Under the pieces are notes generated by a model, which was not told the origin of the DNA, ran no database searches, and saw only the letters and a program-made list of their open reading frames with translations. A program made the translations under genes and the position numbers. Of a stretch of DNA of 64,000 bases, positions 1 through 62,000 are shown one piece after another (positions within the stretch are counted from its first letter, which is position 1; each line of letters starts with the position of its first letter). This DNA comes from Amoebophrya sp. A120 (Eukaryota; Protista; Dinoflagellata), in the NCBI GenBank assembly GCA_905178155.1, contig CAJINV010000010.1:1-64000 (forward strand), given 5' to 3'.

Positions 1-537
1 ATCTTCACGAGAGTGTGGAACAAGTGGATGCCGCCAGAAGCAGGAGGAGGAGCCTCACGGGCAATTACAGATGCCGCCGTCGTTCTTGCTTTGCGTCTGC
101 ACGGTAATTCTGCAAGGTCCCACCGGTAGCAGTGCAATCAGAAAACATACATAATACCTGTTAAAGAGGTCCGTCATCTCATCGCGATGATTATGCACGT
201 GATGCGGTTCGCATTATGATTCGTACGTTTTGGTACTCAACTTATCCTTGCGTCCCCGCCGTCGACTTTTACTAAAAATCAGACTAATATCGCATCCGGT
301 TCGACTTCCACAGCCGTCGACGTGTCTGAGCTGGTTGAAGATGCTCCTTCAACTTCTTCTTCCTCCGCTTCGTCGCCGCCTGGCTCAAAAATTTTGTCGA
401 AATACATGAAGTACGCGTATCCGATATGACACGCAGATTGCAAAATTCACGTTCGCATGGAGAATTGTAGACGGAATTCGGTGAAATCTTTGAATAGTGA
501 TTCATTTTATTTTCCGGACCTACTTCATCTGTTCGCT

Positions 538-31000: not shown

Positions 31001-34000
31001 GCCGGACCCAAAAGTCTTTTCGTAGAGGATGACTTCGCGGGTGTTCAACTGGTAGCAGAGAGTGGAAGCGGAAGGCAAAACCGTGTTCGGCACGCCGTCG
31101 TCGTCGCTCGCGGTCGGGCTGTTGCCGTAGTGCATCCGGGAAACCAAAGCACTTGGGGTGAGCAGTGCCTCCACATCCCAGTCCTGCCGACAAAGTATTA
31201 TCAAATGCAAAAATGTCTGGGTCTGGAAACTTGTGATGCAAGACAGTCAATGACAAACGCACTGTAATGCGCCGCCAAGCATGACTAGTTTTTTCGTGCT
31301 TCTGTGCTGCGTATTCCGCATGAGAAACTGTGTTTTTGCATGACAGGCGAGACAGAGAGGCTGTTTGTGGCCACGCAATACAGATTTAAGGGCCATGATG
31401 CCAGATCAGCGTGACAATTCTCGCAATCTTCCAGACCCAGACATTTTTGCAGTTGATAAGTATGTGGCGGATGACATCTTCGATTGCGCCAAGTTGGGAG
31501 ATCAGGAATTCGGTCAAAATCAACCCTTTCCCGGTGTCGAGATAGCCTAGATACGGATCTGGAGGGGAGGGGAGGTCTTCTTGTGTATTCGAGACTTCAT
31601 TTGATGGGTGTTTATTCAGCTTTTTAGTTATTTTCAACACCTTCTGTTCTTTCGTGTGTTCTCGTTTCTTGTCGACGTTTACTTTCTTCTCTTTTTCGAA
31701 AGAAAATTTTTCTTTGCTGAGTTGCAGTGCGGACGAGGAGTCTCGTACTTGAGGAGGTTGATCTTGATCTACTAGGGCACCATGGGCCGCCTCATCTTCG
31801 TCATTTTTCTTCTTCCCTAATTCCAACATCGCTTGATCTTGCGCCGCTTGCTGCTGTACAAGTACCCCGCCAGGACGAGCAGCTGGACCACCTTCAGCCA
31901 GTGGCACGTCTCCGTCCGCCGAGGGTGAAGGTAAGTCCGGCACGCCACCGATGTACATGATGCTGTTGTGCGTAAAATATCGCCTCGTCTGCCGTATCTT
32001 AGGGTCGCTCTGCGAGTGCCCGGCTCCGAATCTGTCATCACTCATCTTGAAGAAGTCATGGGTTGTGGACCAGGAGGGGATCATGTTCTCCCGATACAAG
32101 AAAGATTTCTGGTCCGAAAATCGCAGCGAGTTGGGCAGAAACCGGTGCACCCAGTTCCACACGTTCCCGCGGAGATCCAGTGAATCTTGTATGAAAGCCC
32201 CAGGTTGGAAATCCTCAAAGTGGAAATTACTATCTATTATATTCATGCGAAAAAAGAGGTCTACAGAGGGTCGAAGGGAGGTGGCCGAGAGGTCAAAAAG
32301 AGGTCGACAGAGGTCAAAAAGAGGTCGACAGAGGTGGAGAGGTGGCGCGGGAGGTCAATCGAGAGGGTGGCCGAGAGGGTGCGCGAGTATAGCCCGCCGA
32401 AGGACTCGCCCTAAAGCCGCGCCTATGGGGGACGGAGGTGGCCGAGAGGGTCCCGAGAGGGTAAACGAGAGGGGGACAGAGGTGCCGAGAGGTTGCGCGA
32501 ATAAGGGCGGGCCTCTCGCGCAGCCTCCTGGCCACCTCTCGGCCACCTCTGTAGACCTCTATCTGTGAGTATAGCCGAACTATTAGCAACACCTCTCGGG
32601 AGAGGTGAAAAAGAGGGTCTGCGAGAGGGTCAGAACAACCCGAATCCCCCCGGCACGCGGTCGATTTTCTTTGGGCCTTTTCATGGCGCAGGCCCGCACC
32701 CCCACCCTTTCGCGCAACCCTCTCGCGCCACCCTCTCGCGCTACCCTTTCGCGGTCGCGCCAGCGATTTTCGCCGGGAAACAAATTAAAAGGGGGCGGGT
32801 GGGTGATCAAAAAAAGGCAGCGCGGCTTCCGTTCTGCTTCCTTCGGCATCTATGTCGAGCCGGCTTCGTTTCGCCCCCAAGCTTCGCTGCAGCTGCTCCC
32901 TGCGCATAGCGCCTGAAGGCGCGGGAAGCGCGCAGGAGGCCCAGCGGGTTGAGATGGCGCAAACCGGCGCCAGTATTTTCTTCGACCTACCTTGACGCCG
33001 TGCGCAAACAAAGCTGTGGCGCTGTAGCCCGATCCGCAAATAGTCCTGCCCCGCCACAACAGCCACTCGCCCCGGCGTCAGCCGGGGCATGGCTGGTAAT
33101 TTGTAATGCAAAAGAACGACTCCAGTGGAAGCGCCATTTGTAGTCGGCGCATGACAAATTTCCCGGGCACTCAAAGCGTGTCTGTCATGCTAGAAAGGCA
33201 AAGGGTTGCACCTCTCTCGTGCTAATCAGCACTCCAATTCTTGACCCGTAGCACGACAACAGTCGGCTTCCGTTGCATCCTCTGCAATGCAGTCTTTTTT
33301 GCGTCGCATTTCATGCATCACAAATTATTTCCACGTTGAGGATTTCCATTCTGAGGCTTTCATATCTTGTTTCCGGAAAGTCATCGGGTATTTGATCCGC
33401 GCGAAGTATGGGGGTGTCAGGATTGAAATCGTCACAATTGAAATCAAATAATTTGCCATGCATAAAGTGCAGCCCTCAGAGTGCTGTCTTGCAGAGTAGG
33501 CAAGTGACGCAGATTGTAAGCCTGTTGAGGGGTAGAAACTGAGCGTAGTAAAGTAGCACGACAAAAGGCGTCTTTCTTACCCAAACAGCATGACAAACTG
33601 GATTCCGGCTCCAACTAAATTTGTCATGCGCCGATTGGAAACTGGGTCACAACTTTCATCCATTTTATGCATTGCAAATTATTTCAACTTTGTCGATTTC
33701 AATCCTGACAGATCCATACGAAGTCGTACAGCTTTTGTTCGTTCGGATCTTTGGCCGTTGTTGTGTAAACTTCGTCCTCCCCATGCGCCGTTTCTAGCGC
33801 TACCATTCCCGGCGCGTAGTTAATGTCTACGTTGTATCCTGAGGAAAGATGTCCCCACCCCAGAGTCAAGATGGGGATTTTGCAACACAAATCAACAATG
33901 TTTGGCTGTTGCGCATGACAAGTTTGCGTCTGTAGCATAGAGGTGCTTGGCTAGCAAACCTACATCACAAATGTAGCCCCTCATCCTGATTAGAGCATGA

Positions 34001-40299: not shown

Positions 40300-40576
40300 T
40301 TAATCCACTTCCACGACGTATACACACTTGCCTTTTTCCGCACCCTCCAGCATCGCCTTCGCCCAAAAACCGATTGTTCCATTCCAGCTCAAAAACGGAT
40401 TGATTTCCCATTCCTGCCTCGAGTACGTCGCCTTCCACCAGAGTGGCAGCTGCATGTCCCGCGGAAAGTTTGCGCGCACGAGACCAAGGAAGTTTTCCAC
40501 TTGAAACGACCTAGCCCCAGCTAGCATCCAGCGGAAGTGCAAGTGCGTCGCTTTGTTCATCTCCATGGCAGGAAAC
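40300..40576 (-). pseudogene. detached C-terminal part of the DUF285-like gene
   Basis: Starts with FPAMEMNKATHLHFR, the same peptide that ends the 42552 ORF, and continues open to a stop at 40300. Confidence 0.5.
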
Positions 40577-40706
40577 TTTCTTTCTACTAGAAACTTTCTG
40601 TTGATCTCCAAACTTTCTTTCTACTACTTCAACAAACTTCTACTAAACACTAAGTTAATATTTCCACAATCACACACCTTATCCTTAACCTTGTCATCTG
40701 TAAGTT

Positions 40707-41725
40707 CTAAATATCCACCTCATATCGGTCCCGCACGGCCTCGATCCAGTCGTGTACGAGCATCTCGCGGACCATGTAAATGCCCTGCGTTTGCAGCAAC
40801 CCCACCAGCCGCTTGTGCATTTTCACGAACATGCCGGGGGGAAAGTAGCCCTTCCACTCCTGAATCGATCCCTCGTCCACGAAGCAGGTGACCTGCGGGC
40901 CGTTCGACTTCTTCAAGTTCTTTTCCGCAAGCGCACTCCTGTCCACAGCGATACTCGTCATCTTGCGCTCTTCATCTTCTTGCTGCTCGTCGGGAGAAGA
41001 CTTTGTTGATTTGCTCTCGTTCAGAAGCTGCATTTTCTCCTCTGCGACCAAATCCTCCATTCTTTTCATCTCGTAATCCCCATCGTAGTAATACTCCGAG
41101 CAAAAATCCACGACACTGAAACTGCCCGCAACGTCGATAAAGCCACCGTAACAGGTATCACAAGAAAAAGCCTTAACGTTTACGGTTTTATTCACAGATT
41201 GCAGCCATGCCTCACACATCTCGCCTAGTATGCATGCTATGCATGACAAATTTGGGTACTTTTTGTGATGCATTGCCGCATCACAAATTCCGTATTAGCG
41301 TTAAGTACCCGTAAACATTTTTTCCTGTGATAACAGGGACACGAGATCTTGTACCCTATCGACATCATCCACTCAAACGCAAGGCGGGACTTCTGTCGTG
41401 AAGAAGTTGATGACGATGTAGAAGCACCACAACTTGTGCTTTGATCTTGCTTCTGTGAGGACTGTTGTAGTTCCGGCGGCGTATGCAGCGTCACCTCCCC
41501 TCGTACGTCCGCCTCCAGAAAGTCTAGCCAGCATGCCGTTTCGAGTTCTTGTTGTTGGCTGGTGCAATAATTTCTACTATCATTTTTATCCTGTGTGGAG
41601 GGCGGTGCTGCTCCACCACCGCTCAGTTGCATTTGCTCCCTCTCCTCTTTCGTGAGTTTCATCCACAAGCAGGCACGCGTCGGCCAATTTTCGTCGATTA
41701 TAGTACCGGGTGGACGGTTGTCCAA
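40707..41725 (-). pseudogene. 5'-truncated duplicate of the 47905-49404 gene
   Basis: Near-identical peptide (RPPGTIIDENWPTRACLW...RDRYEVDI*) lacking the N-terminus; carries element 41156-41332. Confidence 0.6.
41156..41332. mobile_element. family G element, absent from the paralog
   Basis: DR acagg; empty site at ~48615 has a single acagg. Confidence 0.92.
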
Positions 41726-42165
41726 TCAGTTATAATAAATTAAAATTAGGCCTACACTCACTACATCATGTTTCCCAATGACATACCTGGCCGATCTTCA
41801 TCTTGACTACATATTTTATGTCTATGGTCATGAGGTTTTTGTCCGATGAATAAGAATGCCGCATGGTTGTAGTGGGGTTGAACTAAATAAATGCCAGTTA
41901 GATCATCGCTTTCGATCACAATGATGTTGATGCCACTGCACTGCGAGGCGCCACTCGACGGAGCGCAGTTGCAGTTCTGCACCAATTGCTCAATTATCAT
42001 TATCATTATACACTTACACGAGCAAGTCAGCACCAGTGTCAGCTGTGCTCACGTTTTTCAGACTACTTGTAAAAAAGTTGTAAATACCACGATTCTAAAA
42101 TATATGATTTTATTGCACGATAATTTTGCGTCAAGAGAACAACGCTGATTAATTCAAAGGCATCC

Positions 42166-42546
42166 TCACAACCCTGGCGGTGGTCCCGACACAAACGTAG
42201 CATGCGGGTCCACCATGATATTACCTGCTGCCGCTCTATGATTTCGGATCATGGCCAGATAATACCTATACCAATCTCCGCCAATCCCTTCCAATTGGTA
42301 CTCTCGCCCGGTATCGCGATAGGTGAACTCGAGGGCCCTTTCCCATTTTCGCCCTACTTCTACCGGCTGCTCTCCGTGGTCTACTTCTGCGCTTCCCGCA
42401 GCTCCAGGCTTGGACACCAGCTCTTCACCACCAAGCGTGAGGCGCAACACATCCCTGCTGCCCTGATGATCCCCCATCAACTGTATCTGTAACGCAGCGC
42501 GCGTCCAGCGCCACGTCCGTCCGTGGGTCCGGAAATAAGGTTCATC
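42166..42546 (-). pseudogene. duplicated 3' end of the 52294 gene
   Basis: LDEPYFRTHGRTWRWTRAALQ...VSGPPPGL* matches 52294-52671; the duplicated 3' flank continues to ~41800. Confidence 0.6.
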
Positions 42547-42551
42547 CAGAG

Positions 42552-45455
42552 CTACATAGTTCGGAAGTGCATGTGCAAGTGCGTCGCTTTGTTCATCTCC
42601 ATGGCAGGAAACCTCCAGCGGCTCAGGTTTTGGTTGAAAGAAATCGCGTTCCGGAACATTTGGGACACGTCTTTTGCCGACCGCATGTCCCAATCCCCGA
42701 TGTTCTGGTTGAAATCTAACAAATTGAGAAACATGGAGCCGAAGTCCTCGACCCCGCTCACGTTCCAGTTCTCCACAGAAAACTCTGGGAGGAAAGTGTC
42801 GTGCCAGGGATTCGAGGAATGCAGTAGTATTTCGGGTCCGAGTATCCACAGAAAAAAAACCCATCCACATCCATTTTTTGCATGACAAACACACGATATT
42901 GATTTGATACGTGTTTTGCATGACAAATTGGATGTGGATGGGTTTTTTTCTGTAGATACCGAGCACACGGAGAACAGCGGGATCGTCAAGTTTGATCCGG
43001 TCGGCTGGCACATGGATGGTTTCACCCTCCTTATCCCACGGAAAAACTGCTTCACTGTGATGATCTTGCAATATCCGCATCACAAGTTTGCTACACATGA
43101 CACAGAAAATCCGCCATGCGCGCATTTCCCAAAGGGAAAAACACACGCTTGAAAATCCAATGTTCGATGCAGGTGTAGCAAGCCAAATAGTTAATGTGTT
43201 CTATTCTGTGCATCACAAGTTCACAGTGAAACAGTTTTTTCTCGCGATACTCCTCATGAGAGACTTTCTCCTCGTCCGTCATGACCATTAGCCTCGCGTC
43301 CGGCAGCTTTTCCGACGAGTAGAACTTTGGGTGTTCCGCTACTTCTCGCGAATTGTTGTCGATCGCGCTCCTGTATGCTGTGCAAAAGTATCGTACTAGT
43401 ACAAATTGCATCACAAATTTCCTCAGCATGAGACATAAAAAAATTTGTAATGCTGTTTTACCTTAGGAAGAAGATTTGTCATGCATATTTGCAATTACTA
43501 CGAGTACGATACTTTTGCAAAGGATAACCTGTCCACGTGGTCCACAGCAAAAAGCGTGTCCACGTGGTCCACAGCAAAAAGGTAAGACAGATCGCGAATC
43601 GCGCTCACGTATCAAATGCAAATATGTCTGGGTCTGGAAACCTGTAATGCTGAATGGCCACGAGTAACTGCGCCTGTAAGAGCAGTGTAGCATGACAAAT
43701 TGTTCCGACGCTTTCTCATGCTTAGTGCGCATTACAAACTGCGCTATTGTATGACGAAATTGCGGCGCTTTTATTGCTTTTATGCAAGACAGATTTTTCT
43801 GGAATCCTGGACACGCAATACAAGTTCCGCTTTTCGTCCAGAGCCAGACCCAGACATATTTGCAATGCATATCACGTCCCACTCCCGCGGCGGCCCGTAG
43901 TAGGCCCGCGCCTGGTTCCGGGCTTTTTCGAATCGCAGAGCAAACGAATGAGCTTTGTCGACATCCGCCCAACGTGAAAAGTCGGGAAAGAACGGCCCCC
44001 CGGAATCTTCCTGGAGAAATTTTGCGTGGTGCTCCGGTCGCACCCAGAGTAAGTATGATTTGCAAAAACGCCCCCACGACCCTAGAGCTGTCATGCAAAT
44101 CTGCATGCGAAAAAAGTTTCTCATGCGGAGCCGTATGAGAAGCGTTTTCTAGTCGTCTTCTGGGGTTTGTGATGCTATAATGAGCATTATATGCTAGATC
44201 TGTGTTGATGCTGCTGACCTACCTAGAACAGGACTGCACTACGAGGGCAAGCCTGTCATGCGAAACAACCAAAGCTGGTTGGTTTGTCTAGCAGATTTCT
44301 CATCTTGACACTGGTCGCGTGGGGACGTTTTTACATAGGATAGTAAGATGGCTTTCTTCAGTTCCCGCCGGGTTTCGAACTTGTAATACTGCTTGTGCTA
44401 TCTCTATCAAATGCAAAAGGGTCTGGGTCTGGAAGATTCTGAAACTTGTCATGCGCGTTTGCATGGGCCACGATGAATGTCTGTGATGCATGCCCTAGCA
44501 TCACAGACTTGTTGAGGGCTTCGTGATACCTATTCCACATGACAGACGCCCTCTCCGCGTAGCCAAAATTGCATTCCCTTCGCTGGTCATGCAATACAGA
44601 TTTTTTTAGAATCCAAATGCAGCATCAAAAGTCGCGCATTCTTCCAGACCCAGACACTTTTGCATTTGATATGTGCCTCCCCGCGTTCTGAAAGGCCCGA
44701 CTGGCAGCGCGGAGTGCCGGAATAGGGCGAAGAAAGTGCTGCTGTTCGCGTGCTGGTCCCCCGCCGCCGGCGCAAGAGGTAGAGGACGCATCATCTTCTT
44801 CCGCGACGTAACGAGCGAACTCGTACCGGTCCGGAAGAGGACCTCGATAAGGTCCCTCCCCGGACAGTTCAGCGAGCTTGCGCCAAGAATGATACTTGCA
44901 CATATCTCGGTCCCGCGTCTGGTTTATCTGGTTTCTTTTTTTTTCTATGTCTTCCTGGTCCGCTTTACCACGTGCTGTGGTCCCCAGGCCCCCGGCGACA
45001 ATCATGTCGAGAGCGTGATCTAGAGCGGGGGAAGCGAGGTGGAGTTTACTATCTGTGGCGGCTTCATGATGTTGTCCCGCTTCATGATCTGCCGAAGATG
45101 AAGATTGTCCACCTGGTGCAACTACTACATCTTCTCCAGGCAGAGGAGGGGACGCCGGCTGCGCGGAAGAAGTGTAAAAGCCGGGCTCTGCTTGTTGCGC
45201 CACCAATTGGCGGCCTCCGTCAGCACTTCTTGTTCCCGAAGACGCTGAATTCCTGGTGGCATTTTTTGCAAGAAAGTTTGCTCGCGAAAAGTAGTCCCAG
45301 CAACAAGTACTAGAAGTCCCAGAAACAAGTTGCGCTCCACTCTGCGCAAGAAGTAGTCCCAGGAACGTGAGGCGGGACGTAATGGCCGGCGATGTTGAAG
45401 CTGCTCGATGCATGCTTTTTTGCATTTTGATCTGTTCCTCGCAATGATTATACAC
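42552..45455 (-). CDS. DUF285 / BspA-like repeat protein with N-terminal hydrophobic segment, possibly disrupted at its 3' end
   Basis: After removing 44399-44671, 44054-44342, 43610-43871, 43374-43526, 43032-43249 and 42843-42958: FETRRELKKAI...YYGPPREWDVSAIRDLSYLF...WNVSGVEDFGSMF...FNQNIGDWDMRSAKDVSQMFRNAISFNQNLSRW, which fits the DUF285 WDVSxVTDMSxMF...FNQxIxxW repeat. Confidence 0.7.
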
Positions 45456-46089
45456 TTAGAAAAGAAGTGGACGTCGACGTAAAAAATTAGATATGAAAAA
45501 GCCTTAAAATCCTACATATGAAAATATCAAATCTCAGACGTATCTAGTATGTAATGAACGAGAAGATGAAAGCGCCACTTCTGCACACATCAAATTATGG
45601 CACTAATTGTTGGAGGCTTAGCTGGTTGCAAAAATAGTAGTTGCAGTTGCACCTTCTAGCAGCGAATGCCAAAAACTTCTATCTAAAACTACACCTCACT
45701 TATTTAGCCTTTAGTTTACTTGAATCCCTGTGCGTGGCGATAATCGACGTAGAAAGGTTCTGTTGGTGCATGTGGAAGTAGTACCTAGAACTTCTACTTC
45801 TACTACAAGAAATCCAAATCGCCGAGGAACTAGATAAATTTCTTCGAAAAATTGTTCTTGCACCTGGTACAGGCCGAAGGTGTTGGAGCTTCGAGATCCC
45901 TTCTAGGACTACATCATCAAGGATCATGCAGATCTGTCCAGGGGATAGTACTCGCGATCGGATGAAGAAGATGAAGATAGAGGTGACCACGATCACGATC
46001 TTGATGTTCTTGATTGTTCAGCATTATAAATCGTGTCTTTCGACGTCATGATGCCCCGTGAAGTAGACTTGTGTTTAGCATCTCAGAAC

Positions 46090-47600
46090 TACTAAGTGGA
46101 ACTTTCTAGGAATGAGGAAATTTTGAAAAAATTGCCCCCCCTTCGAATTCTCTTCCGAAAGCAGCAGCTCTTCGTAGCTGTGTTTGGCTGGCGTGGCGCG
46201 CCAGCATTTGTTTGCTGTATTCGAAAATGGAAGCGGGAAGCGACTGTGTCAGAGTTCGGACGCATTGCCGCGCAGTGAAATCACCAAAGCAGGCAGGCGG
46301 CTTTTCGGGTGCCACTCACCTCGATCGCCAACTAGCCATCGCCGGAGGCTCAGCACACACCTACAAAGCCGCGCTTCATCTGAATAACGGCCGCGATCTC
46401 TACATGTGCATCGCAGTGAGAGCACCGCGCTAAGGTGGCAGGTCTTTGAGGTCTCTGGGCCTACTCTACCGAACAGCAGCTCGCCGGCAATCGCCTAGTG
46501 GGGCTTCCAACCCAAGGCGGCAGCCCTGGAAGGGGCCAATGGGGTCGGGCGCGTGGCCTGGCCGGCTCGAGGAGTTGCAGAAACATTTGAAAAGAATGGC
46601 GGAGGACTACCGCGGCGCCCTCAAGTGCCTCGGCCGGGTTTTGGCGGGGTGCCCCAACAAAGGTCGCGCCCGAGGGCTCAGCCCCGCTCTGCTTTTCTTG
46701 GTGTTTCTTGTATGCTTCAAATAGAGATCTGCGCTTTCCGCTCGTGATTCAATTTCCGAGGAAAATGGCGAAGGGGGGGGTCGCGGGGGGGCCGGAGGGG
46801 GCCTCGAGAGGGCCCCCACTGAAGGGGGCAAAAATCGCCCCCGTGCCGTCGTGATTCAATTTCCGAGGAAAATGGCGAAGAGGGGGGGGGAAGGCAAGGG
46901 GGAGGGGCCGGGGGGCCCTGAGTTTTCCTCGGAAATTGAATCGCGACGGTATGGCACCGCTTTTTGCCTTGTTTCGAGGCGAATCTGGGAATTGGCCTGC
47001 TTTGCCGGCCTTCCCGGGCTCCCTTTTTTGGGTAGCGAGCGCGGCAACAAAACACGCCCAAAGCGAGGCCAAAACCATCACCATAGCACCGCGATTCAAT
47101 TTCCGAGGAAAATTTCGAGTCCGGTGCGAAATGCCCTCAAGTTGGGAGCGGTAGGACCAAAGCCGCGGCAGGTTGGTTCACGGTGGGAAGCTGTCGACGG
47201 CGTGGGATATTTAGCGCGGTTCGGTAAGGGGGTATACCTGCCCCGGTTTAGCCGTTTTATTTGTAGCGCATGGCGTCCATGAGTAGGAAGGCCCATGGCG
47301 CTTGAGGTTTTGGCTCAATGGCTTTGAGAATGATGCGGGTGTGTGGAGGCGCCACCATTCGGAGAGCAAGGCGCTGTCTTTTAGGTGCAGCCGCGATAAA
47401 GCCCATTATATGTGAGCCACGGATGGCTCTCCAGGCTCGGCGACCACAGTTGTCCACGGGGCTCTGCGAGCTCGTCTCGCGCAGCGGTATTCGCAAATGG
47501 GCCGGCACAGGGCCGCGACCTGATATCTCCACCTGCCTACTTTCACCTGGGGACTGAATTTTTTCGAATTTTCCTCATTCCTAGAAACTTCCACTTAGTA
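46090..47600. mobile_element. 1.5-kb intergenic TIR element with 5-bp TSD
   Basis: ~44-bp TIR TACTAAGTGGAA(C/G)TTTCTAGGAATGAGGAAA; TSD agaac; internal motif GATTCAATTTCCGAGGAAA x4. Confidence 0.85.
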
Positions 47601-47904
47601 AGAACTTTATTCGTCCTAGTAAGCCAGATCTATTTAGTACGACTGGTCGTGGTCTCCGTTCTTGTGAGACGCCGAGTCAGAGGCAGAGCGGCACAAGGAA
47701 ATAACATCGTCCTCGTGAACCTCTTGTCTGGTTCTGGATCATCTGAGCCCGAGTTGTTGCAAGATGCTCAGTGAGGTAGATCATGACAACGAGGACTACA
47801 CACCGACTTGTTGTGTACGTCTATGTGTTCTGCCGTTCGTCCGCTTCCCTTTCTGATGGTGGAACAACTGGAATGACACGTCCTGTCCGTGGTGTCTATG
47901 AGTT

Positions 47905-49404
47905 CTAAATATCCACCTCATATCGGTCCCGCACGGCCTCGATCCAGTCGTGTACGAGCATCTCGCGGACCATGTAAACGCCCTGCGTTTGCAGCAACCC
48001 CACCAGCCGCTTGTGCATTTTCACGAACATGCCGGGGGGAAAGTACCCCTTCCACTCCTGAATCGATCCCTCATCCACGAAGCAGGTGACCTGTGGGCCG
48101 TTCGACTTCTTCAAGTTTTTCTCCGCAAGCACGTTCTATCCTGTGCAAAAGTATCGTGCTCGTATTGCAATCATGCACTACGAATCTTGTTCTTAAGGTT
48201 AAGCTAAATCCGCATTACAAATTTTATTTCTCATGCTGAGGAAATTTGTATTGCACGACTACGATACTTTTGCAGTTCATACGTTCCTGTCCACTACGAT
48301 ACTCCTCTTGCGCTCTTCATCTTCTTTCTGCTCGTCGGGAGAAGACTTTGATTTAGATTTGCTCTCGTTCATCAGAAGCTTCATTTTCTCCTCTGCGACT
48401 AACTCCTCCATTCTTTTCATCTCGTAATCCCCATCCACAGAAAAAACCCATCCACGTCCAATTTGTCATGCCAAACACGTATCAAATCACGTGTTTGCCA
48501 TGCAAAAAATGGATGTGGATGGATTTTTTTCCGTGGATAATCCCCATCGTAGTAATACTCCGAGCAAAAATCCACAACGCTGAAACTGCCCGCAACGTCG
48601 ATAAAGCCACCGTAACAGGGACACGAGATCTTGTACCCTATCGACATCATCCACTCAAACGCAAGGCGGGACTTCTGTCGTGTTGAACAAGTTGATGATG
48701 ATGTAGAAGAGGTTGTGCTTTGATCTTGCTTCAGTGACTTCTGTTGTAGTTCCGGCGGCGTATGCAGCATCACCTCCCCCCGTACGTCCGCTTCCAGAAA
48801 GTCCAGCCAACATGCCGTTTCGAGTTCTTGATTTTCTTGGCAATAATTTCTACTATCACTTTTATCCTGTGTGGAGGGTGCTGCTCCACCACCGCATCCG
48901 CTCAGTTGCATTTGCTCCCTCTCCTCTTCCGTGAGCTTCATCCACAAACAGGCACGCGTCGGCCAAGTTTCGTCGATTATAGTACCGGGTGGACGTATGT
49001 TGTTCCTGTATCTACTCGTGTCGTCGTTCTCGTCCTCCAAGGAGGTTGCCGTTGAGACACTGCTCTTGTCGTTCACCTTCAGTTCGTGCCGTCGGTCCGG
49101 GGGAAGCTGCTTGTAGAAGTCGCGACTGTAATATGCACAGCATATTGAAGTAGATTCCCATACGTTCACCTGCACATCAGATGCGATTTCTGCATGACAA
49201 ATCTTCTTTCGGTCAATCTGATTTGATATCACAAGTGGCATGCAGCTCAAAGTTAGCAAAATTTGTCATGCGCTTCGTACTTCTTAATCTTATGCGGCTA
49301 TAAAAACGGGAAATCGTGAAATTTGTATTGCATACGAAGCGAGCCAAAACCCACTCCTCGCTCCATGCGGATATGTTCTTCTCGGTCCAGTGCTGTTTCG
49401 ACAT
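47905..49404 (-). CDS. hypothetical protein, 4 exons
   Basis: MSKQHW...ARF|GRDFYKQ...DGD|YEMKRMEE...DRN|VLAEKN...EVDI* after removing 49132-49334 (degenerate), 48432-48539 and 48137-48281. The paralog at 40.7-41.7 kb confirms two junctions. Confidence 0.65.
48137..48281. mobile_element. family B introner, absent from the paralog
   Basis: DR cgttc; empty site at ~40935. Confidence 0.92.
48432..48539. mobile_element. family L introner, absent from the paralog
   Basis: DR atccc; empty site at ~41078. Confidence 0.9.
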
Positions 49405-49593: not shown

Positions 49594-50583
49594 TTAGACC
49601 AGAAAATCGGTCGAAGTACATGTTTTTTTGCGCATCCCCGTGCAATGGGGGTCGCGGGCGGAGAGAAGTTGGGGGGTGCGAAGGCGCGACTGCGTTCCGG
49701 GCTGCTTTACCCCGGAAAAATTAGCCTCCGGCGCTGCGGCGGGGCGGCCGGGGCCGGGAAGGGTCGGCCTGACATAGATAGGAAGGCGACGGCACGCAGC
49801 CAACACTTCGCCACCCGCCCCCGCGCGAGGCTCACGTCGGGGATGCACAGCCGACTCGGCGTGCATCCCGGGGCCCCAACTCGAAGCCCACCCGGGGCCG
49901 GAAAAGCTTTTGCTCTGGCTGCGTCCGGGCGCGCCCTCCCCCATCTGGGGCCCCGGCCGGCGGGTGGACTGCGTGCCCCTGGAAAGGCGCGCACGCCCCC
50001 CCCTTCCGGGGGGGGGGGGAAAGGGGGGCNNNNNNNNNNNNNNNNNNNNNNNNNNNNNNNNNNNNNNNNNNNNNNNNNNNNNNNNNNNNNNNNNNNNNNN
50101 NNNNNNNNNNNNNNNNNNNNNNNNNNNNNNNNNNNNNNNNNNNNNNNNNNNNNNNNNNNNNNNNNNNNNNNNNNNNNNNNNNNNNNNNNNNNNNNNNNNN
50201 NNNNNNNNNNNNNNNNNNNNNNNNNNNNNNNNNNNNNNNNNNNNNNNNNNNNNNNNNNNNNNNNNNNNNNNNNNNNNNNNNNNNNNNNNNNNNNNNNNNN
50301 NNNNNNNNNNNNNNNNNNNNNNNNNNNNNNNNNNNNNNNNCAGGCCCGTGGGAAAGCCGCTTGGCGGGGCGCCGCTTCTCGCTCTGGGCGGGCTTCGAGG
50401 CCGGGAGGCCGCCCCGGCTCTCTTTGACAAGCCACAACGCCCGAGCCGCTGCATGGCGCAGCGAGGTCCTCGGGCCGGGTGTGTTGCGAGGGCATCCCAC
50501 CGCCCTCGAATTGAAACGAAATTGGCCCGCCATGCCAGCGGGGGCGCGGAAAAGTATGTACTTCGACCGATTTTCTGGTCTAA
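49594..50583. mobile_element. GC-rich TIR element spanning an assembly gap
   Basis: 28-bp TIR TTAGACCAGAAAATCGGTCGAAGTACAT; TSD unclear; N gap at 50030-50340. Confidence 0.7.
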
Positions 50584-52293
50584 AGTGCAGGTCTTGTTGC
50601 AGCGGTAGTTCCGCCGGAAGAAATCCACCGGGAAGTGGACCCAACAACTACCGAGAAGAAAAAAACGAAAACCACGAGCGCCGGACGCTTATTGCGACGA
50701 CCGCGCCGCACTTTGTTTGCTTTTCACTACTTTCTTCACGGGCACGTGGTCGTGGAGAAACTGCGAGATTTACTTCCGTATTGTTCCGCCGCAATGGAAC
50801 GAGCATCAGAGAAGTGCACACAACCAAGTCGCACGGCCTGTGGTTGAGATAAAAAAAAGTGGAACCCGACCTGAAGATAATGTGGCAGCTCGGACGACCG
50901 AACACGACAACTCACTGATCCTACTTGATGGTGGAAGTTTTTCCGATTATATCCAAAAGGGAGAGGAGAAGTAGTACACTTCATTTTCATCTTCACAGAC
51001 TCAGCGCCTCCAAGGTGTGAAGACCAAGTAATTACCTACACAGGAGCAGAACAAATCTTTTCTTTCTTCTTCTTTACTTACCACGACATCACCGTCGGTG
51101 GAGAATCAAACCTTCTGGTCTTGGCCTGCTCCCAAATCACCACGTCTGCGTGATGGGGAGCGAGTCTTCATTGTGACCACCCGACAGAAGGTTTTTTTGA
51201 TATTTATGCAAGAAACGGTCTTTGGATGATTTGAAAGCTGCGGAGCGATGATTGAATAGCCTAAGAAAGGTTCTTGAACATGATCCGACATGATACACAT
51301 CATGCGCTAGCTGGTACTGAATTGATTCGATAGATGAAGCTGCCGCGAAAATAGTAAAATCTTGAATTGTCATACCCGGCGACTGCAGCTGCGCCACAGC
51401 AGAAACCTTTGCACCGTTGCCGCAAGCAGCTACGTTCGCAGGAGATCGAGGGTCAGAGTTGCAATAAATAATCTTGATTTGTCGTGCGATTCAACAATGA
51501 TAACAATCACAAGGGGTTGCTCCCCTACTTCGAACAGTTCCTACTCTTACTGGCACAGTCACAAATTAACTTGCCTCATTGCTATTCCAATCCATGCATG
51601 GCTCGTCTATTTTGAATACCATACAACTGGCTATACTTTTTCGTGAACCGCATCCGCAGATGATAGATATCGAGATGCGAACGCTTGTTCGCTAAAATCT
51701 TTGATGGAAGTATCAATAGTGCATGCCACGACTCAGAAGATGACATATTTGCAGAAATAGCGAAACTGCCCTCAGAAATCAGTTGCGAATTAGCACTACG
51801 CTCACTACTTTCCAAATGATATATTGGGCCGCGGCTTGCTTCGTTGTCAAATAGATTGCAGTAATTTTTTTCTGTATGCTTCATGGTCAATCTTGACTAC
51901 TTAATTTATTTCTACTATGGTCATGAGCTTGGGTTTGCTTTTTTTCGTCCGATGAATAAGACTACCGCATGGTTGTAGTGGGGTTGAACTAAATAAATGT
52001 TTATTTAGATCGCTTTCGATTACATCAATGATGCCACTGCACTGCGAGACGCCACTCGACGGAGCGCAGCTGCAGTTCTGCACCAATTTATTTTGCTTCA
52101 CTATCATTATACACTTACACGAGCAAGCCAGCACCAGTCGTGTCAGCTGTGCTCACATTCTTCAGATTTGTAAAAAGTGGCGAGTACTACGATTCTAAAA
52201 TTATGACTTTATTGCACGATCTGGCGTCAAGAGAACAACGCTGATTAATTGATGATGATGATGATGTACCCAACTGCGGGGTCTAAGGCATCC

Positions 52294-53584
52294 TCACAAC
52301 CCTGGCGGTGGTCCCGACACAGGCGTAGCATGCGGCTCTACCATGATATTACCTGCTGCCGCTCTACTATGATTTCGGACGGCCAGATAATACCTATACC
52401 AATCTCCACCAATCGTTTCCAATTGGTACTCTCGCCCGGTATCGCGATAAGTGAACTCGAGGGCCCTTTCCCATTTTCGCCCTACTTCTAATGGCTGCTG
52501 TACGTGGTCTACTTCTGCACTGCCCGCTGCTCCAGGCCTGGCCAGCGCCAGCTCTTCACCACCAAGCGTGAGGCGCAAGAGATCCCTGCTGCCCTGAGGA
52601 GCCTCCTCCACCTGTAACGCAGCGCGGGTCCAGCGCCACGTCCGTCCCTGGGTCCGGAAATAAGGTTCATCAAGAAGTGCATAATGCGGCACACTAGTAC
52701 TTCTGCAGCTTAAGTCACGAACGATTTCGCATCCGCTCCGTTCCATGGTGGGCGTTAGGCTGGATTCCAGGTCAAGCAAATCGGCGTACATAGAAGGTGA
52801 AGGATCAACGAAAAGAGAAACATCCAAAACCTTCCCCGGGGTGCTTAGCCGTTCGTCGCTATTTTTCTGCAGGTGAAACAGAAACTGAAGCAGCTTCGTC
52901 CACTGCGTACCGACCTCGTTTTCGAAGTTCTTTTGGTAAAGAACGCTTTCGACGAGAACACGATCGAAGTCCTGGGCCTTCACGCTATTCCACGTAACAG
53001 CGCGACCCGCTCCTGGCACAGAAGTTGTCGGGGCTAGGACGTGCACAAGCGGAACCAGGGGACGCCCAGCACCATGGTCACTACGATACCCCCAATCGTG
53101 CGAGATCACACCAACCCGCTTGGTAAGCTTTGCTTTCCTGTTCTCTCTCTTTTCCGAAAAAAATAACGCTACCAGCCCCGGCGACCGCGTCAAGTTCTTG
53201 TAGAGAAGCGGCAACGAGTTGAAGTTGTACCGTATTAAGTTCTCTTCATCCTCATCCACTCCCGACAGCACCCGCCCTGCTGCTTCAGCTTGTTTCGCCC
53301 TAGCAGTAGCAACGTCCTGCGCGACGTGTTTTGCGGCAAAAGCCGCCCCAGCTTCTTCCGCGGTCGCGTACGTGCGGCGACCTCCAGGACGAGTCCCAGG
53401 ACGCGAGGCCGCAGAAGCGAGCGCCTTGGCCTTCGCGGCGGCTTCTGCTCTTCGCTGTTGTTCTTCTACTTTTTCCACGCGAGCACGACGGACCTCCAGC
53501 TCCTGCAGCTTGTCCTTTTGGGCTTTAACACTGCTCTCCGACCGTCTTTTCTTTTGGATCTCGAAACTGTTGGTGCGAAAGGGT
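52294..53584 (-). CDS. hypothetical protein (long terminal exon; 5' end unresolved)
   Basis: 394-aa ORF extendable upstream (KAQKDKLQELEV) to element 53585-53721; its 3' part is duplicated at 42166-42546. Confidence 0.55.
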
Positions 53585-54385
53585 TATGCTGTGCAAAAAT
53601 ATTGTGTTGATGATTTGGCGTTTTTTGCATGACAGATTCAAACCAAAACGCTTGATCATGACCTTGCGGTCCGAAAATGCAAAAAGAGAAAAACACCAAC
53701 ACAATATGTTTGCAAAGCATAAGCGCGACACTCCCGAACGCGTTCCTCCTAGATGTAGATGTTGATTTTTCCCGCTGCTGGAGCACCGGGCTTTTCGACT
53801 TCTTGATGAGATGGAGATGATTTTCTAGCGGCTTAAGAGGAACACGCTGGAGAATAATCTGGGGCGTTGCAATTTCCGACACACCGGGAGCCATCACGGA
53901 GAGGGGCGAAGCCGTCCCTGTCTTCCGGTAAATGCTTTCCGAAGAGGGTACGAAAAAGACCGAAGTTGTACTTGCTGGAAAACTGGCGGATGTGCTCGCA
54001 CGTCTCGCTGTGCGTACAGCTGGTGGCCTTGTGTTGGGCATCTTCACTCTGCTTTACTTCAAACCAGGCTAACTCTCTAGCGACCACGTGTAACCTATGT
54101 GACATCTGTGTACAAAGACCCTCACCTCACTGCTCTCACTTCGCTCAAACTCTCTTGACCCCAAAAAAAACAATTTTGGCTGGACATTAGACAAAGCGAA
54201 GGCCTTACGAAGGACTGCGAGGCGTAGCTACCTTTGCAGGTAGTTCCACGGCCTACAGCGTGTGCTCGACTACCTTGGTGATATGTTACAAAGGTCCCCA
54301 ACTTTTCTGAATGTGACGCGATGATGTACAACGCAATGCGGTTGCAGCTTGTCCTTTTGGGCTTTAATAAATTAATTTCGTACTA

Positions 54386-56300
54386 CTAGAGCTCGCCGTT
54401 GGCTTCTGCTTCCAACTGGTCCAAGTACTCTGCTTATGGATTGCAAAAATGTCTGGGTCTGGAAGGATGCAACTTGTGATGCTGCATTTGGATTCTACAA
54501 AAATCTGTATTGCATGAACAGCAAAAGAGTTGCAGTTTTTGCGACGGCGAGAGGGCATTTCTCATGCGGTATAGGCATCAGGAAGCCCTCAAAAAATCTG
54601 TGATGCTAGGGTATGCATCACAGACATCAGGGTTCATGCCAAAGCTGCATCGCAAATCTCTGCATCCTTCCAGACCCAGACATTTTTACATTTGATACTG
54701 CTGGAAAGCGGTCCCAAACTTCAGCATTGTGTGTATCCTGTGCAAAAGTATCGTATTCGTATAAATGCAAGTCTTGCATTACAAATTTTTTTCTCAAGGT
54801 AAATCCGCATTACAAATCTTAATTGAATTCTCATGCTGGGGGAACAATTTGTCATGCATTTATACGAGTACGATACTTTTGCACTTCATAGTGTGCTTCA
54901 CGCAGCTATCAATTGCAAATATCCCTGGATGATGTCTGGAAGATTCTAAGGCTTGTCACGCACGTTCTTTTGCATGAGCCATGACGTCCTCTGTGATGCA
55001 TGCCCTAGCATTACAGATTTTTTATTTTTCAGGGCTTCCTGATGTTGCCTATTCCGCATGACAAAAAATACCCTCTCCGCGACGTAGCAAAAATTCCATT
55101 CCCTTTGCTGCGGATGCAAAAATACAGTTTTTTTTGGAATCCAAACGCACCTTCCGATTGACACATCTAAACCCAGATCGATGTTTGCAATTCCATACCT
55201 TTTCCCCCTTGCCAAAACGCTGCGCATCAGTTTGCCTTGCTCCAAAACACTAGGGTCCAAGGGTGCACTATCCCACGAAAGAACTGTTTGTTCACTGTGA
55301 TGATTTTGCAAGATCTGCATCACAAGTTTCATCTTACACATGACACAGAAATAAATTTGCCATGCGCGGCACTTCCAAAGGGAAAACAGCGTCAAAGAGT
55401 CGCGGTCTTGCAGGTGGAGCAAGACAAATAGTTCTGTGATGTTGCCTTCTGTGCATCACAAGTTCACATTGAAACAGTTTTTTCTTGCGATATGCACCGC
55501 CCGCGTAAGTCCTCCGCTTCTCACGTTATCCTGTGCAAAAGTATCGTACTCGTATATTAAATTACATTCATGCACATCTCTTTCTAAGCCTGAAACAGCA
55601 TTACAAATTCCAGTTCTGTTCTTGCCGGAATTTGTGATGCAATTTGTACTAATACGATGCTTTTGCATTGCATACACGTAAGCGCGCAACAAAATTTGTC
55701 CAGAGCGGCGGCGCCGTCATCGTAGTGTCTATCTGGATGTAGGGAAGCAGCAGCGAGTCCTTCTCTTCCTCATACAAAGTTTTGGTGCGGTTTTCTATCC
55801 TGAGTAAAAACATCCCCACCCCATAGTTGTCATGCAGATTTGCGACTACAGGAAGATTTATAATGCGCATCTCCATGAGAGGCATTTCCAATCGCGTTTT
55901 GGAATTTGTAATGCTGTAAACAGGATAAACAGATGGATTTGCGATCCGGTTGTCCTTGCTAACATGCACTACACCTACACTACGGACTGCAACTTCTCAT
56001 GCGTGGCTTCCAAAGCTTGTGGATTTGTCTTGCTAGGACCCCAACTTGACTATGGGGTGGGGACGTTTTTACATATGATATTTTCGGTTCTCTGCCCATC
56101 CAGGGTTTGTACCTCCAGCTCCTGCAGCTTGTCCTTTTGGGCTTTAATAAATAGCTCTTCATCGTCTGCCTCAGTCTTGCCAATAGCCCTGTTGAGGACA
56201 AAATTCTTCTTCTTGTTTCCTCGCGCTGGGCTGGTACTAGAAGAGGCCGCTCCGGACGTCGGTGGTAAGTCTGCGCCTCGAGCAACTTGTTGCTCACCAT
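54386..56300 (-). CDS. hypothetical protein, about 7 exons
   Basis: Frame is kept across 55796-56080, 55527-55674, 55269-55492, 54734-54890 and 54435-54697. The junction at degenerate element 54907-55197 does not follow the 5-bp rule. Shares KAQKDKLQELEV with the 52294 gene. Confidence 0.45.
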
Positions 56301-59004: not shown

Positions 59005-62000
59005 CTACGGCCCCGCCCCTCCGCTTGTCGGACTGGGTGTTCTAGAAGAAGTCGAGCTTGAATTCGGTATCAACTGTAAAATTGTCTGGGTCTGGAAGAT
59101 TCTGACAGTTGGTTGGTTGGTTGGATAGCGCCTGTCGCCGGTGCAGGTCCCGCCCTCCATCGATTGCGATCCGGAGTAGCCGGAACACAAGGCCCTAGTG
59201 GCACAATCGATCGACGAAGCCCTTTATAACCAGGTCACGGACATCCGGCTGCCGTGGAGTCATTCGCGGGCCAGGCAACGTCTAGGAGCTACGGATTAGG
59301 GATCTTGATGGGCGAGACAGGTCACAGTCATCCGCCTGCCCATCGAAGACGAGCCAGGTCACAGTCATCCAGCTGCGTTCACAGTACGAGCCAGGTCACA
59401 GTCATCCAGCTGACTGCATAAGAACGTCCCCGGCAGCAATCATCGAAGTGAACCCATGGGAAGTGTCGTGAAATGCCAAAGACAGGAATCCCCTGACATA
59501 CGCCAACAAAACCCAATAACCACATGTGACGACGTGGAGAAAGGGTAGACCCCGACTGGCCTACGAGTAGGCCTGATTGCTCCGCTGCGTGGTATTTTCC
59601 CGGGCAAATTTATTTAAAGTGAACCCCGGGCCATTATTACTATCTATTATATTCATGCGAAAAAAGAGGTCTACAGAGGGTAGACGAGAGGTGGCCGAGA
59701 GGTCAAAAAGAGGTCAAAAGAGGTCAAAAAGAGGTCGACAGAGGTGGAGAGGTGGTGCGGGAGGTCATTCGGGAGGGTGGCCAAGAGGTGGCGCGGGTAT
59801 AGCGAGCCGAACCGTTCACCCTAAAGCCGCGCCTATAGGGACCAGAGGGGGCCGAGAGGGTGCCAAGAGGGTAAGCGAGAGGGGGACAGAGGTGCCGAGA
59901 GGTTGCGCGAATAAGGGCGAACCTCTCGCGCACCCTCCTGGCCACCTCTCGGCCACCTCTGTAGACCTCTAACGGCGAGTATAGCCGGACTATTAGCAAC
60001 ACCTCTCGGGAGAGGTAAAAGAGAGGGTCTGCGAGAGGGTACAAACAACCCGAATCCGCCCGGTACAGGGCCGATCTTCTGGGGGATTTTGCATCGCTCG
60101 GGCCCGCACCCTCTCGCGCCACCCTTTCGCGCCACCCTCTCGCGCACCCTCTCGCGCACCCTCTCGCGCCACCCTCTCGCGCACCCTCTCGCGCCACCCT
60201 CTCGCGCCACCCTCTCGCGCACCCTCTCGCGCCACCCTCTCGCGCTACCCTCTTGCGCCAGCAGTTCCGTCGGCCGGGAAGCCATTGGGCGGGGGCGGGA
60301 GAGTGATCAACACAGGGCAGCGCGGCCCCCCTTGTGCTTCGGCACTTACGCCGAGGCGACTTCTCTTTGCCCCCAAGCTTCGCTGCAGCTGCTCCCTGCG
60401 CATAGCGCCTAAAGGCGCGGGAAGCGCGCAGGAGACCCTGCGGGGTTGCATGGCGCAAAACGGCGACAGTATGTTCCTCGGGGGGTGGGGGGCTGTCGCG
60501 CTGTGTCCAAAGCTCTGGCGCGGCGTCCCGATCCGCAAATAGTCCTGCCCTGCCACAACAGCCTAGCGCCCCGGCGTCTGCCGGGGCATGGCTGGTAGTT
60601 GTCACGCACGTTTTGCATGAGCCATGATGTCCGTGATGCATACCCTAGCAATACAGATTTTTTGAGGGCTTCTTGATGCCTATTCCGCGTGACAAATGCC
60701 GTCTCAGCGCAGCAAAAATTGCATTCCCTTTGCTACTCACGCAATGCAGATTTTTTTGGAATCCAAACGCAGCATCACAAGTTGCATTCTTCCAGACCCA
60801 GACATTTTTGCACTTGGTATTCGGTCCTGGCAACCCACCAGCTTCTACCGCATGATCCTCACCCGGTGGCTATCCTGAGTAAAAACGTACCCACACCAGA
60901 GTTGTAATGCAGATTTGCAAAGACAGAAAGACTTATAATGCGCATCCCCATGAGAGCCATTTCCAATCGTGTTTTGGAATTTGTGATGCTGTGAACAGGA
61001 TGAGCAGATGGATCTGTGATGCGGGTGCACTTGCTAACCTGCACTACAATGCATAGTGCAACTTGTCATGCGTGACTCACAAAACTCCTAGGTTTGTGTT
61101 GCAAAATCCCCATCCTGAATCTGGTGTGGGTACGTTTTTACTGAGGATAGTGGCCCACTAGCGTCCCGCAAGTACCTGCCGGGCAGCAGATTGCGATCGT
61201 GCGACGGCCGAATGTCCGGACTGCCACTGCGGCTCCGCGTAGTTTTCGGAAAGGTCGCGGTTCCGGTACTGTTCCTCCTCACTGCAGAATTTGCGATGTT
61301 GCTATCAAATGCAAATATGTTGTAATCTGGGTCTGGGAAGTTTTGATTCAAGTCTGTGAATGTTGACAAGAGCACTGCAATTGTACCCAGCTAAGGCTGT
61401 TGCTGGCAAGAAATTTTTGGGATGCTACGTGTTTCGTTTTCTGCGTGACCAATTTCGTTTTTGCATGACAGGCAAGACCTGCCCCTTTCCCTGCCCGTGA
61501 AACTGCACAGATTTAAGAGTCATACCAGGCACGCATGACAAACTCAAACTTGCATGACATACGTACTTACTCGAGACCCAGAGAACATATTTGCAATGCG
61601 TAGTCGCCCGCAGATGACGAAGAGGACGCCGAAGACGATGCGGAATATCAAATGCAAAAGCGTCTGGGTCTGGAAGAGTGCATGCTTGTCATGCTTGTCT
61701 GGCATGACTCTTAAATCTGTCATGCACGTTACCCAAGAGCCCCATTTTGCTGTCATGCAGAAACGCAGTCTGCCATGCAGAATAGGCAACACCTAGAAGC
61801 TCAAAAGCTTGTCATGCTGAGCCGGCACTTGTGGCCTCTTCATGATACGCCACCCAGCATCACAAGTTTCCAGAACCAGACATTTTTACAATCCATACGG
61901 AAAGCAGGTTGGCAATGGATCCCGGTTGTACTTTCAACACGTCGTCTGCTGGTGCAGTTCTACTTTGGCCGATCATGTCGTCCGCAAAAGTAACCCCTTT

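Follow-up and report, generated by a model that had tools for sequence, protein, structure and literature searches.

At one locus of Amoebophrya sp. A120, two copies of a gene carry short hairpin elements at different positions, and each copy is empty where the other is filled (Table 1). Were these elements gained after the gene was duplicated, did each insertion duplicate 5 bp of target, and how do they leave the transcripts? We analyzed the first 64,000 nucleotides of contig CAJINV010000010.1, referred to below as the window. In the reading that we consider probable, two real paralogs (copies A and B) differ by three introner elements of the A120 type (E1, E2, and E3), each of which inserted on its own once a segment had been duplicated in tandem, with 5 bp duplicated each time.

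Table 1. Positions of the gene copies, elements, and empty sites discussed in the text.
Feature	Position	Strand	Basis or remark
Copy A, part with homology to B; paralog truncated at its 5' end	40697–41716	-	Alignment
Copy B, segment homologous to A	47895–48995	-	Alignment
Second duplicated block, gene 3' end and non-coding DNA	41800–42564	-	Paralog of 51890–52689
Partner of the second block	51890–52689	-	Alignment
E1, 177-bp hairpin element, A only	41156–41332		ACAGG repeat 41151–41155 and 41333–41337; alignment
E2, 145-bp hairpin element, B only	48137–48281		CGTTC repeat 48132–48136 and 48282–48286; alignment
E3, 108-bp hairpin element, B only	48432–48539		ATCCC repeat 48427–48431 and 48540–48544; alignment
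Empty site in B for E1, exact	48615–48619		Single ACAGG
Empty site in A for E2, length-exact	40934–40938		CACTC; 2/5 bases unlike the repeat of B
Empty site in A for E3, exact	41076–41080		Alignment
Mutant element	44399–44671		Perfect 5-bp repeat 44394–44398 and 44672–44676; paired stem 44405–44671
1511-bp element, TA..TA inverted ends, perfect 5-bp repeat	46090–47600		Two contigs skip it (by 1516 and 1513 nt)
Older element in the 5' part of B, its two flanks unlike each other	49132–49334		A loose end suggests a 208-nt skip (element + 5)

Two Paralogous Gene Copies

Copies A and B are real paralogs. Once the three elements are set aside, they are collinear in the pairwise alignment (781 matches and 42 substitutions, 94.9% identity); small indels also separate them, and the reading frame is kept in all. 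The synonymous divergence between them is 0.135–0.16 and dN/dS is about 0.2–0.3 (Fisher P = 4e-5). After removal of E1, copy A has 278 stop-free codons (ORF 41725–40707), while the ORF of copy B runs on upstream to 49128 and then across the older element. A database protein labeled Amoebophrya sp. A120 (P0001) equals the frame of copy B save two residues, and another (P0002, 257 aa) is contained letter for letter in the spliced frame of copy A. No Pfam family was found above the cut-off for the duplicated protein, the matches being weak ones to GYF and SDP_N alone. The protein search for an outgroup returned the paralogs' own models and two weak matches (P0003 and P0004), which are short, partial, and of no use as outgroups. 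Judged from dS, the duplication is only moderately young.

It is extremely improbable that A and B are haplotypes or a mis-assembly set in tandem, the latter a danger that the preliminary description had itself named. None of the contigs or long reads seen spans the whole stretch, the window holds N gaps, and the assembly itself may derive from run X1. Against this, contigs specific to each copy, with 0 differences, are present for both copies not only in X1 but also in three runs of a different sample (X3, X4, and X6). The A-specific contig 41371–41648 and the B-specific contig 48653–48927 have 0 differences and a depth like that of unique DNA (37.7, 44.8, and 44.4), other contigs join each copy to its own flank (41620–42612, 40600–40847, 47571–47930, and 48899–49300), and a dS of 0.14–0.16 with several in-frame indels also speaks for separate copies. 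Very unlikely, too, is that copy A arose by retrocopying of the spliced mRNA of B with loss of the 5' part, hence without E2 and E3, and gained E1 later. Copy A is indeed truncated inside the ORF of B, lacks both elements of B, and shares homology that stops 10 nt past the stop codon, but neither a poly(A) nor a 3' UTR was carried along. Moreover, the adjoining block in Table 1 was duplicated in the same order, and its dS (0.133) gives an age like that of A and B; since it includes non-coding DNA (91% identity in that part), it points to duplication at the DNA level. A multi-gene segment was duplicated, with a later 5' truncation of copy A.

Filled and Empty Sites

All coordinates given in the preliminary description proved correct, and the alignment that it proposed gave collinear copies with no indel at any of the three empty sites. 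The net length added is the element plus 5 bp in each case (182, 150, and 113 nt for E1, E2, and E3). The claim for E1, with ACAGG twice in A and once in B, is exact. For E2 and E3, which had been described as facing an empty and collinear A, the E3 site is exact and the E2 site is collinear in length, but two of the five target bases differ there; a neighboring base differs too, and about 16 nt away there is an indel of 3 bp. That the three presence/absence differences post-date the duplication is also borne out, so far in keeping with a duplication described as young, although at a dS of 0.135–0.155 it is only moderately so.

Inverted ends of the type TAT + 7 nt + AAA are found at both ends of E1 and E2 and at one end of E3, the other end of which is CAT (E3 starts with CATCC, not TATCC). 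All three elements have predicted hairpin folds (z = -5.4, -5.3, and -12.2 for E1, E2, and E3, 100 doublet shuffles each). Their interiors are no or barely more alike than shuffles (E1–E2 0.56 against a shuffle maximum of 0.545, E1–E3 0.49 against 0.475, E2–E3 0.51 against 0.52), so the assignment to three different families stands. Relatives of the elements in the window are 73%, 84%, and 87% alike with gaps counted, and the nearest one to E3 is 93.5% alike, about the distance between the paralogs. Many contigs of X1 fall on elements of these types. The family of E2 is very abundant (summed contig depth in its bin about 94,000, compared with about 44 for unique DNA), which is an indication and not a copy count.

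Target Duplication of Five bp

The preliminary description had read a precise 5-bp duplication from the A/B pair. This was overstated: the match between element ends and flanks continues past the 5-mer, so that the direct repeats appear to be 7 bp (E1), 6 bp (E2), and 11 bp (E3) long, and these lengths fit equally well. The length of 5 bp follows from the termini of the families together with a catalogue of the window. This catalogue comprises 50 TAT..ATA pairs picked on the inverted-repeat match alone, a count that includes several mis-paired ends; the re-pairing of three of them, which made use of the repeat itself, did not enter the statistic. A flush and perfect 5-bp repeat was found in 30 of the 50 pairs and one with at most one mismatch in 39, compared with none at 6–9 bp and 1/2450 in the cross-pair control. 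The target bases are near uniform, with a mild skew at position 1 (P = 0.02, uncorrected). With the minus strand assumed, position 5 is G in 11, T in 11, A in 10, and C in 10 of 42 elements, and AG occupies positions 3–4 in 2/42.

The insertions would be the work of a transposase supplied in trans that cuts with a stagger of 5 nt and has essentially no target preference. None of 12 ORFs of the large elements and their surroundings in the window had a Pfam match at E ≤ 0.01. Integrase-type enzymes often make 5-bp duplications. For this reason family 38 of A120, which PMC12130899 describes as a terminal-inverted-repeat introner with a Copia/Gypsy-like ORF and a putative transposase region, is a candidate mobilizer; no ORF of that kind was found in the window.

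Removal of the Elements From Transcripts

Seven of 11 sequencing runs were compared with the window. The transcript evidence consists of assembled contigs of one sample, from runs that are probably RNA (a guess), with strands inferred from ORFs. Removal of E1 is seen at joint 41148>41331 (182 nt, 3/4 runs), of E2 at 48130>48281 (150 nt, 4/4 runs), and of E3 at 48424>48538 (113 nt, 1/4 runs), with 0 other letters changed and the alleles of the respective copy. A single contig of 965 nt spans 47901–49128 without E2 and E3 at 0 differences. What is missing from the contigs is exactly the element plus 5 nt, so that neither reading frame is closed. The empty alleles have the same length and frame as the spliced products, as had been predicted from the sequence alone.

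No GT-AG or GC-AG was found on the coding (minus) strand in any register of E1–E3, and such a register exists in 1/42 elements on the minus and 3/42 on the plus strand. Canonical GT-AG splicing of E2 with a gain of 3 nt is out, as the contigs show removal of the whole 150 nt. A plus-strand GT-AG in E1 is a coincidence, the spliced ORF being on the minus strand (278 codons against at most 101). Two further joints were discarded: 42612>40600, which goes back, is an artifact of a 40-bp repeat (40537–40576 = 42573–42612), and 43639>43844, with a side of 22–23 nt within a repeat element, is likely a repeat contig. Loose ends were also seen at 40904 and 40975; their motifs are absent from the window, and further paralogs probably lie behind them.

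A Mutant Element and the Cut Register

The element at 44399–44671, about 3 kb from the A/B pair, has six extra terminal bases (44399–44404) outside the paired stem. Its structure and frames speak against a chimeric element (44405–44671) with unlike flanks. Its joint 44400>44673 skips 272 nt in 3/4 runs, and no slide is possible. Read on the minus strand, the removed piece starts 1 nt ahead of the stem and ends 4 nt past it (stem +2 to -5); the cut ignores the perfect target repeat and leaves a stop codon. This suggests a natural mutant in which hairpin and repeat have parted and the cut follows the hairpin.

The possible offsets of all 11 joints that remove the element plus 5 nt intersect at (1,4) only, where sliding is possible in 8 of the 11 and one site alone pins the offset exactly. 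Joint 46085>47599 is off this pattern: its 5' offset is not the same, and on the plus strand it reads GA-AG. All nine predominant A120 motifs of Table S4 start with N-T, with borders placed by the aligner inside the repeats. Judged by the one decisive site, it is likely the hairpin, and not splice signals, that determines where the cuts fall. We lean slightly towards a ruler in A120, by which the 5' cut is set 1 nt ahead of the stem of the inverted ends and the 3' cut 4 nt beyond it, whatever bases stand there.

Under this ruler, which draws on one decisive and two compatible sites, the RNA stem of the inverted ends would set both cuts; the element plus 5 nt, as is missing from the contigs, would be removed with no GT-AG in any register of E1–E3 on the coding strand. 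As the offsets of 1 and 4 nt add up to the 5-bp target duplication, any insertion of up to 1.5 kb would be silent at any exon position. The candidate cutting machine is most likely a relaxed spliceosome. If true, the ruler would account for introns without splice signals in the tens of thousands. A fixed 1/4 offset would also mend the gene models of the A120 genome and tell what any splicing machine here must measure. The geometry of the ruler is the same as that of NNAG|G in canonical introns.

Gain or Precise Loss

Three gains after the duplication are the likely origin of E1–E3. All 15 repeat bases of the three elements are identical, and both repeats of E2 carry B-specific letters, which we count for gain. 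If the elements predated the duplication, perfect repeats would have a chance of 0.17–0.20, a weak sign of youth. A filled/empty pair cannot by itself separate insertion from precise excision, as is stated in PMC4423477, and a preferential loss of repeat-flanked introns was proposed in PMC3296678. That at least one of the three elements was present before the duplication and was then precisely lost from one copy, by microhomology repair between the repeats or by conversion with spliced cDNA, is a less likely account that nevertheless has several observations on its side. The apparent repeats of 7, 6, and 11 bp exceed the mean of 5.5; their sum of 24 is unusual against the 39 other elements (P about 1e-4), but this test is post hoc, has n = 3, is driven by E3, uses a background chosen for TAT starts, and gives P = 0.03 when the terminal C of E3 is scored as T. 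E1 and E3 lie inside identical runs of 101 and 59 columns, which loss by conversion or repair could leave but which fit purifying selection as well. The empty site of E2 lies in a difference-rich patch (eight difference events within 20 columns on each side, top 1.1% of windows), as conversion or repair could leave, and E3 has an altered terminal base and a nearest relative at about the paralog distance. On the other side, lost introns were no richer in repeats in a Drosophila study (27% vs. 26%), the families are abundant, and section 16 of PMC7789003 argues for gain.

Introner turnover went on after a recent duplication; the rough rate is three changes for a dS of about 0.15 in some 840 bp of exon.

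Comparison With Known Introners

E1–E3 match the A120 introner elements already published (PMC7789003, Farhat et al., 2021), repeats of 5 bp included. The biology is thus known, and the A/B pair illustrates it cleanly without adding a new system. The termini TAT + 7 nt + AAA are given in section 11 of that paper, and its sections available to us describe inverted repeats of this form (8–20 nt, with at least three A after the seven variable bases), a hairpin, many families, no fixed splice dinucleotides, and no transposase inside. E1–E3 likewise have perfect 5-bp direct repeats (3/3), are repeated, form hairpins, and are removed non-canonically in the contigs of one sample. Differences concern the direct repeats, described there as 3–5 nt at varying positions with one 5-bp example (Fig. 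S19 legend) and here uniformly 5 bp and flush; the splice position, called variable and unknown there with respect to the hairpin (Fig. 3 legend) while the register here appears fixed; and the comparison, which was between A25 and A120 orthologs there and between paralogs here. The added value is the splice register, since the borders and recognition without U1 snRNA are left open in those sections. Passages of a review on RNA-binding proteins of dinoflagellates contained nothing that bears on it.

The fixed-length duplication of variable target sequence is also that of MITEs or non-autonomous TIR DNA transposons. Introners of Aureococcus, Micromonas, Symbiodinium, and Polarella (PMC9860276; bioRxiv 2020.10.14.339549) share with E1–E3 a MITE-like structure, inverted ends, target duplication, and splicing that restores mRNA length, and empty orthologous sites already served as evidence for introners (PMC9860276, Fig. 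2G legend). In contrast, those introners carry or co-opt a GY or GA donor and an AG acceptor, which E1–E3 lack on the coding strand, where they have no GT-AG or GC-AG register.

Nonconventional introns of euglenids, as treated in section 6 of PMC11282704 and the abstract of PMC11170887, share non-canonical ends joined by terminal pairing at set distances, frequent junction repeats, and a proposed transposon origin. In this other lineage, pairing is at +4..6 with -8..-6, stems are short, and junctions are biased to pyrimidine|purine, whereas here the offsets are 1 and 4 (stem +2 to -5 at the decisive site), stems are long, and junction bases are uniform. The same sources report circular excised products for euglenid introns.

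Filled and empty sites in a duplicated gene

Pairwise alignment revealed that two paralogous gene copies, A (40697-41716) and B (47895-48995), both on the minus strand, are collinear; without three insertions they match at 781 positions and differ by 42 substitutions and some small indels that preserve the frame. The insertions are hairpin elements, each adding its own length plus 5 nt. The filled and empty arrangement proposed in the preliminary description was borne out. The empty alleles are exact at E1 and E3; at E2 the empty site in A is correct in length but differs in sequence (CACTC, with a third change adjoining it). The spliced frames on the minus strand comprise 278 codons in A and 360 codons in B.

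Hairpin elements present in only one of the two gene copies
Element	Position	Length (bp)	Copy	Direct repeat on both sides	Other copy	Net length added (nt)	Apparent direct repeat (bp)
E1	41156-41332	177	A	ACAGG	B: single ACAGG	182	7
E2	48137-48281	145	B	CGTTC	A: empty	150	6
E3	48432-48539	108	B	ATCCC	A: empty	113	11

Both copies are real coding sequences, and the suspicion of mis-assembly is answered by copy-specific contigs without differences in two samples. In run X1, which may be the source of the assembly itself, the depth of such contigs was 37.7 for A and 44.8 for B (unique DNA, 44.4), and bridging contigs joined each copy to its own flank. Runs X3, X4 and X6 (second sample) contained both A-specific and B-specific contigs. 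No single contig among those compared covered the whole stretch from A to B.

The divergence between A and B was dS = 0.155 and dN = 0.043 over 271 codons, and dS = 0.135 and dN = 0.027 away from gaps (217 codons; Fisher P = 4e-5). The adjacent block 41800-42564 is also duplicated, at 51890-52689, with the order kept, a similar dS (0.133) and 91% identity in non-coding sequence, which makes a single tandem duplication of the segment, after which A lost its 5' part, the favoured history. In the same region, the gene at 42166-44800 appears chimeric: its DUF285 frame gives way, in another frame, to the 3' end of ORF 52294-53583. A 993-nt contig of X3 (41620-42612) runs from the DUF285 region into A, and A may be read within a read-through transcript.

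P0001, the database protein model of B (source label Amoebophrya sp. A120), shows the two residues of A at the E2 junction (48110-48300). These residues are unobtainable from B by one intron and need a micro-exon of 4-9 nt inside E2; they are probably a gene-model artefact. The element at 49132-49334 is read through in P0001.

Target repeat and element families

Because the apparent repeats exceed 5 bp to different extents, the A/B pair alone leaves the boundary between element and target unplaced. Of the precise 5-bp duplication claimed from the pair, the pair itself bears out the filled and empty sites; the 5-bp figure derives from the family catalogue of the window. Among its 50 end pairs, chosen by inverted-repeat match alone, a flush 5-bp repeat was perfect in 30 and had at most one mismatch in 39, and repeats of 6-9 bp occurred in none; in the control, 5 bp matched in 1 of 2450 cross-pairs. 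Target sequences were near random (42 elements), which fits a staggered cut rather than a motif. E1, E2 and E3 have a terminal pattern in common, and their interiors resemble each other at or close to shuffle level, so they represent three families. The predicted fold of each lies far below its shuffles.

PMC7789003 describes 29,850 copies of such A120 elements in 1,954 families, with inverted repeats starting TAT, seven nucleotides, AAA, and direct repeats of 3-5 nt, including one 5-bp example. The same paper reports no detected U1 snRNA and terms the intron borders relative to the hairpin variable and unknown. Other work describes introners that duplicate their target and co-opt splice sites (PMC12130899; PMC9860276; bioRxiv 2020.10.14.339549), and euglenid introns defined by structure (PMC11282704; PMC11170887).

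Removal from transcripts and a proposed cut register

Contigs from four runs of one sample, placed at 98% likeness, were treated as RNA because every element is absent from them and the exons are identical letter for letter; the RNA status of the runs is a tool's guess. E1 was skipped in three of the four runs (shorter side of the joint, 70 nt), E2 in all four and E3 in one. The E1-skipping contig covers the A-diagnostic bases 41112 and 41115 with no differing letters listed, and the E3 skip is in a 965-nt contig that is B sequence throughout and is also without E2. The omitted lengths are exactly 182, 150 and 113 nt, in agreement with the earlier statement that the empty alleles have the spliced length. 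On the coding strand, no GT-AG or GC-AG is available for E1-E3 at any cut position inside the repeats. The filled and empty observation is correct, now with transcript support, in a system already described.

Thirteen joints were listed, 11 of which skip elements; of the other two, one is an artefact caused by a 40-bp repeat, and the second was dropped because it lies inside a repeat. A further element skip, making twelve, comes from a loose end at 49128. Perfect repeats let the junction slide; offsets were measured from the paired ends. The skip equals element plus 5 in 11 of the 12, and the allowed offsets of these 11 (8 uninformative, 2 compatible, 1 decisive) have a single combination in common, 1 nt ahead of the paired stem and 4 nt beyond it on the sense strand. 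The decisive element, 44399-44671, has a perfect 5-bp repeat (44394-44676 with repeats) and 6 extra bases between repeat and stem. Cutting to the repeat would remove 278 nt and give a 520-codon frame; contigs of three of the four runs remove 272 nt, where sliding is impossible, leaving a stop that separates a 276-aa ORF from the DUF285 frame. Thus, neither the repeat nor the outer terminus sets the cut, which follows the stem. In the remaining skip, of 1513 nt and from a single contig, the 4-nt offset holds on the minus strand and the 1-nt offset does not; on the plus strand it reads GA-AG, which makes it ambiguous for this register.

The register predicts introns starting N-T, and this start is shared by all nine A120 motifs that PMC7789003 gives as predominant (Table S4; borders aligner-placed). 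With the minus strand assumed for all 42 elements, the first intron base was G in 11, T in 11, A in 10 and C in 10, and only 2 ended in AG, so signal recognition fails to explain the register. We found no literature fixing the A120 cut register, in a search covering subscription journals thinly. The hairpin-measured register, based on assembled contigs of one sample, from which rare isoforms are lost, is a lead worth following and can be tested on existing RNA reads.

A 1511-bp GC-rich element (46090-47600) has TA..TA inverted ends and a 5-bp repeat; one contig of X4 skips 1516 nt there, and one of X5 skips 1513 nt. Eight ORFs gave no Pfam matches, and X1 contains divergent copies elsewhere.

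Gain or loss of the elements

Three gains at E1, E2 and E3 appear quite likely. The perfect repeats point weakly in this direction; gain is also favoured by the presence of letters specific to B in each of the two E2 repeats, and by the abundance of the E2 family. Precise loss is the counter-reading, and intron loss between repeats is treated in PMC3296678. The long apparent repeats speak for loss (P = 1e-4, or 0.03 with the altered terminal base of E3 discounted; both post hoc), as do the long identical runs surrounding E1 and E3 and the diverged patch at the E2 site. Insertion and precise excision are indistinguishable by comparison, according to PMC4423477, and protein searches gave no outgroup, only P0001, P0002 (the model of A) and two weak partial matches. 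No use of paralogous empty sites in Amoebophrya was found in the literature, again with thin coverage of subscription journals. Contigs of probable RNA runs fuse A sequence at 40904 and 40975 to sequences absent from the window, which are possibly further paralogs and potential outgroups.

Other features of the window

A GC-rich element of about 1 kb with 13-bp tandem repeats is present in three copies (18560-19590, 32226-33090 and 59636-60600), apparently nested in short hairpin elements; two examples, 32190-33364 and 59068-60819, are bounded on the outside by perfect 5-bp repeats. Another GC-rich element (49594-50583) has 47-bp inverted ends and spans an N gap. Exact copies of exon pieces, 30-40 bp long, are scattered nearby (40537-40576, 53492-53528, 54343-54372 and 56111-56152). 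The minus strand holds 16 of the 19 long ORFs in the window (at least 200 aa, GC below 56%), forming a unidirectional gene cluster.
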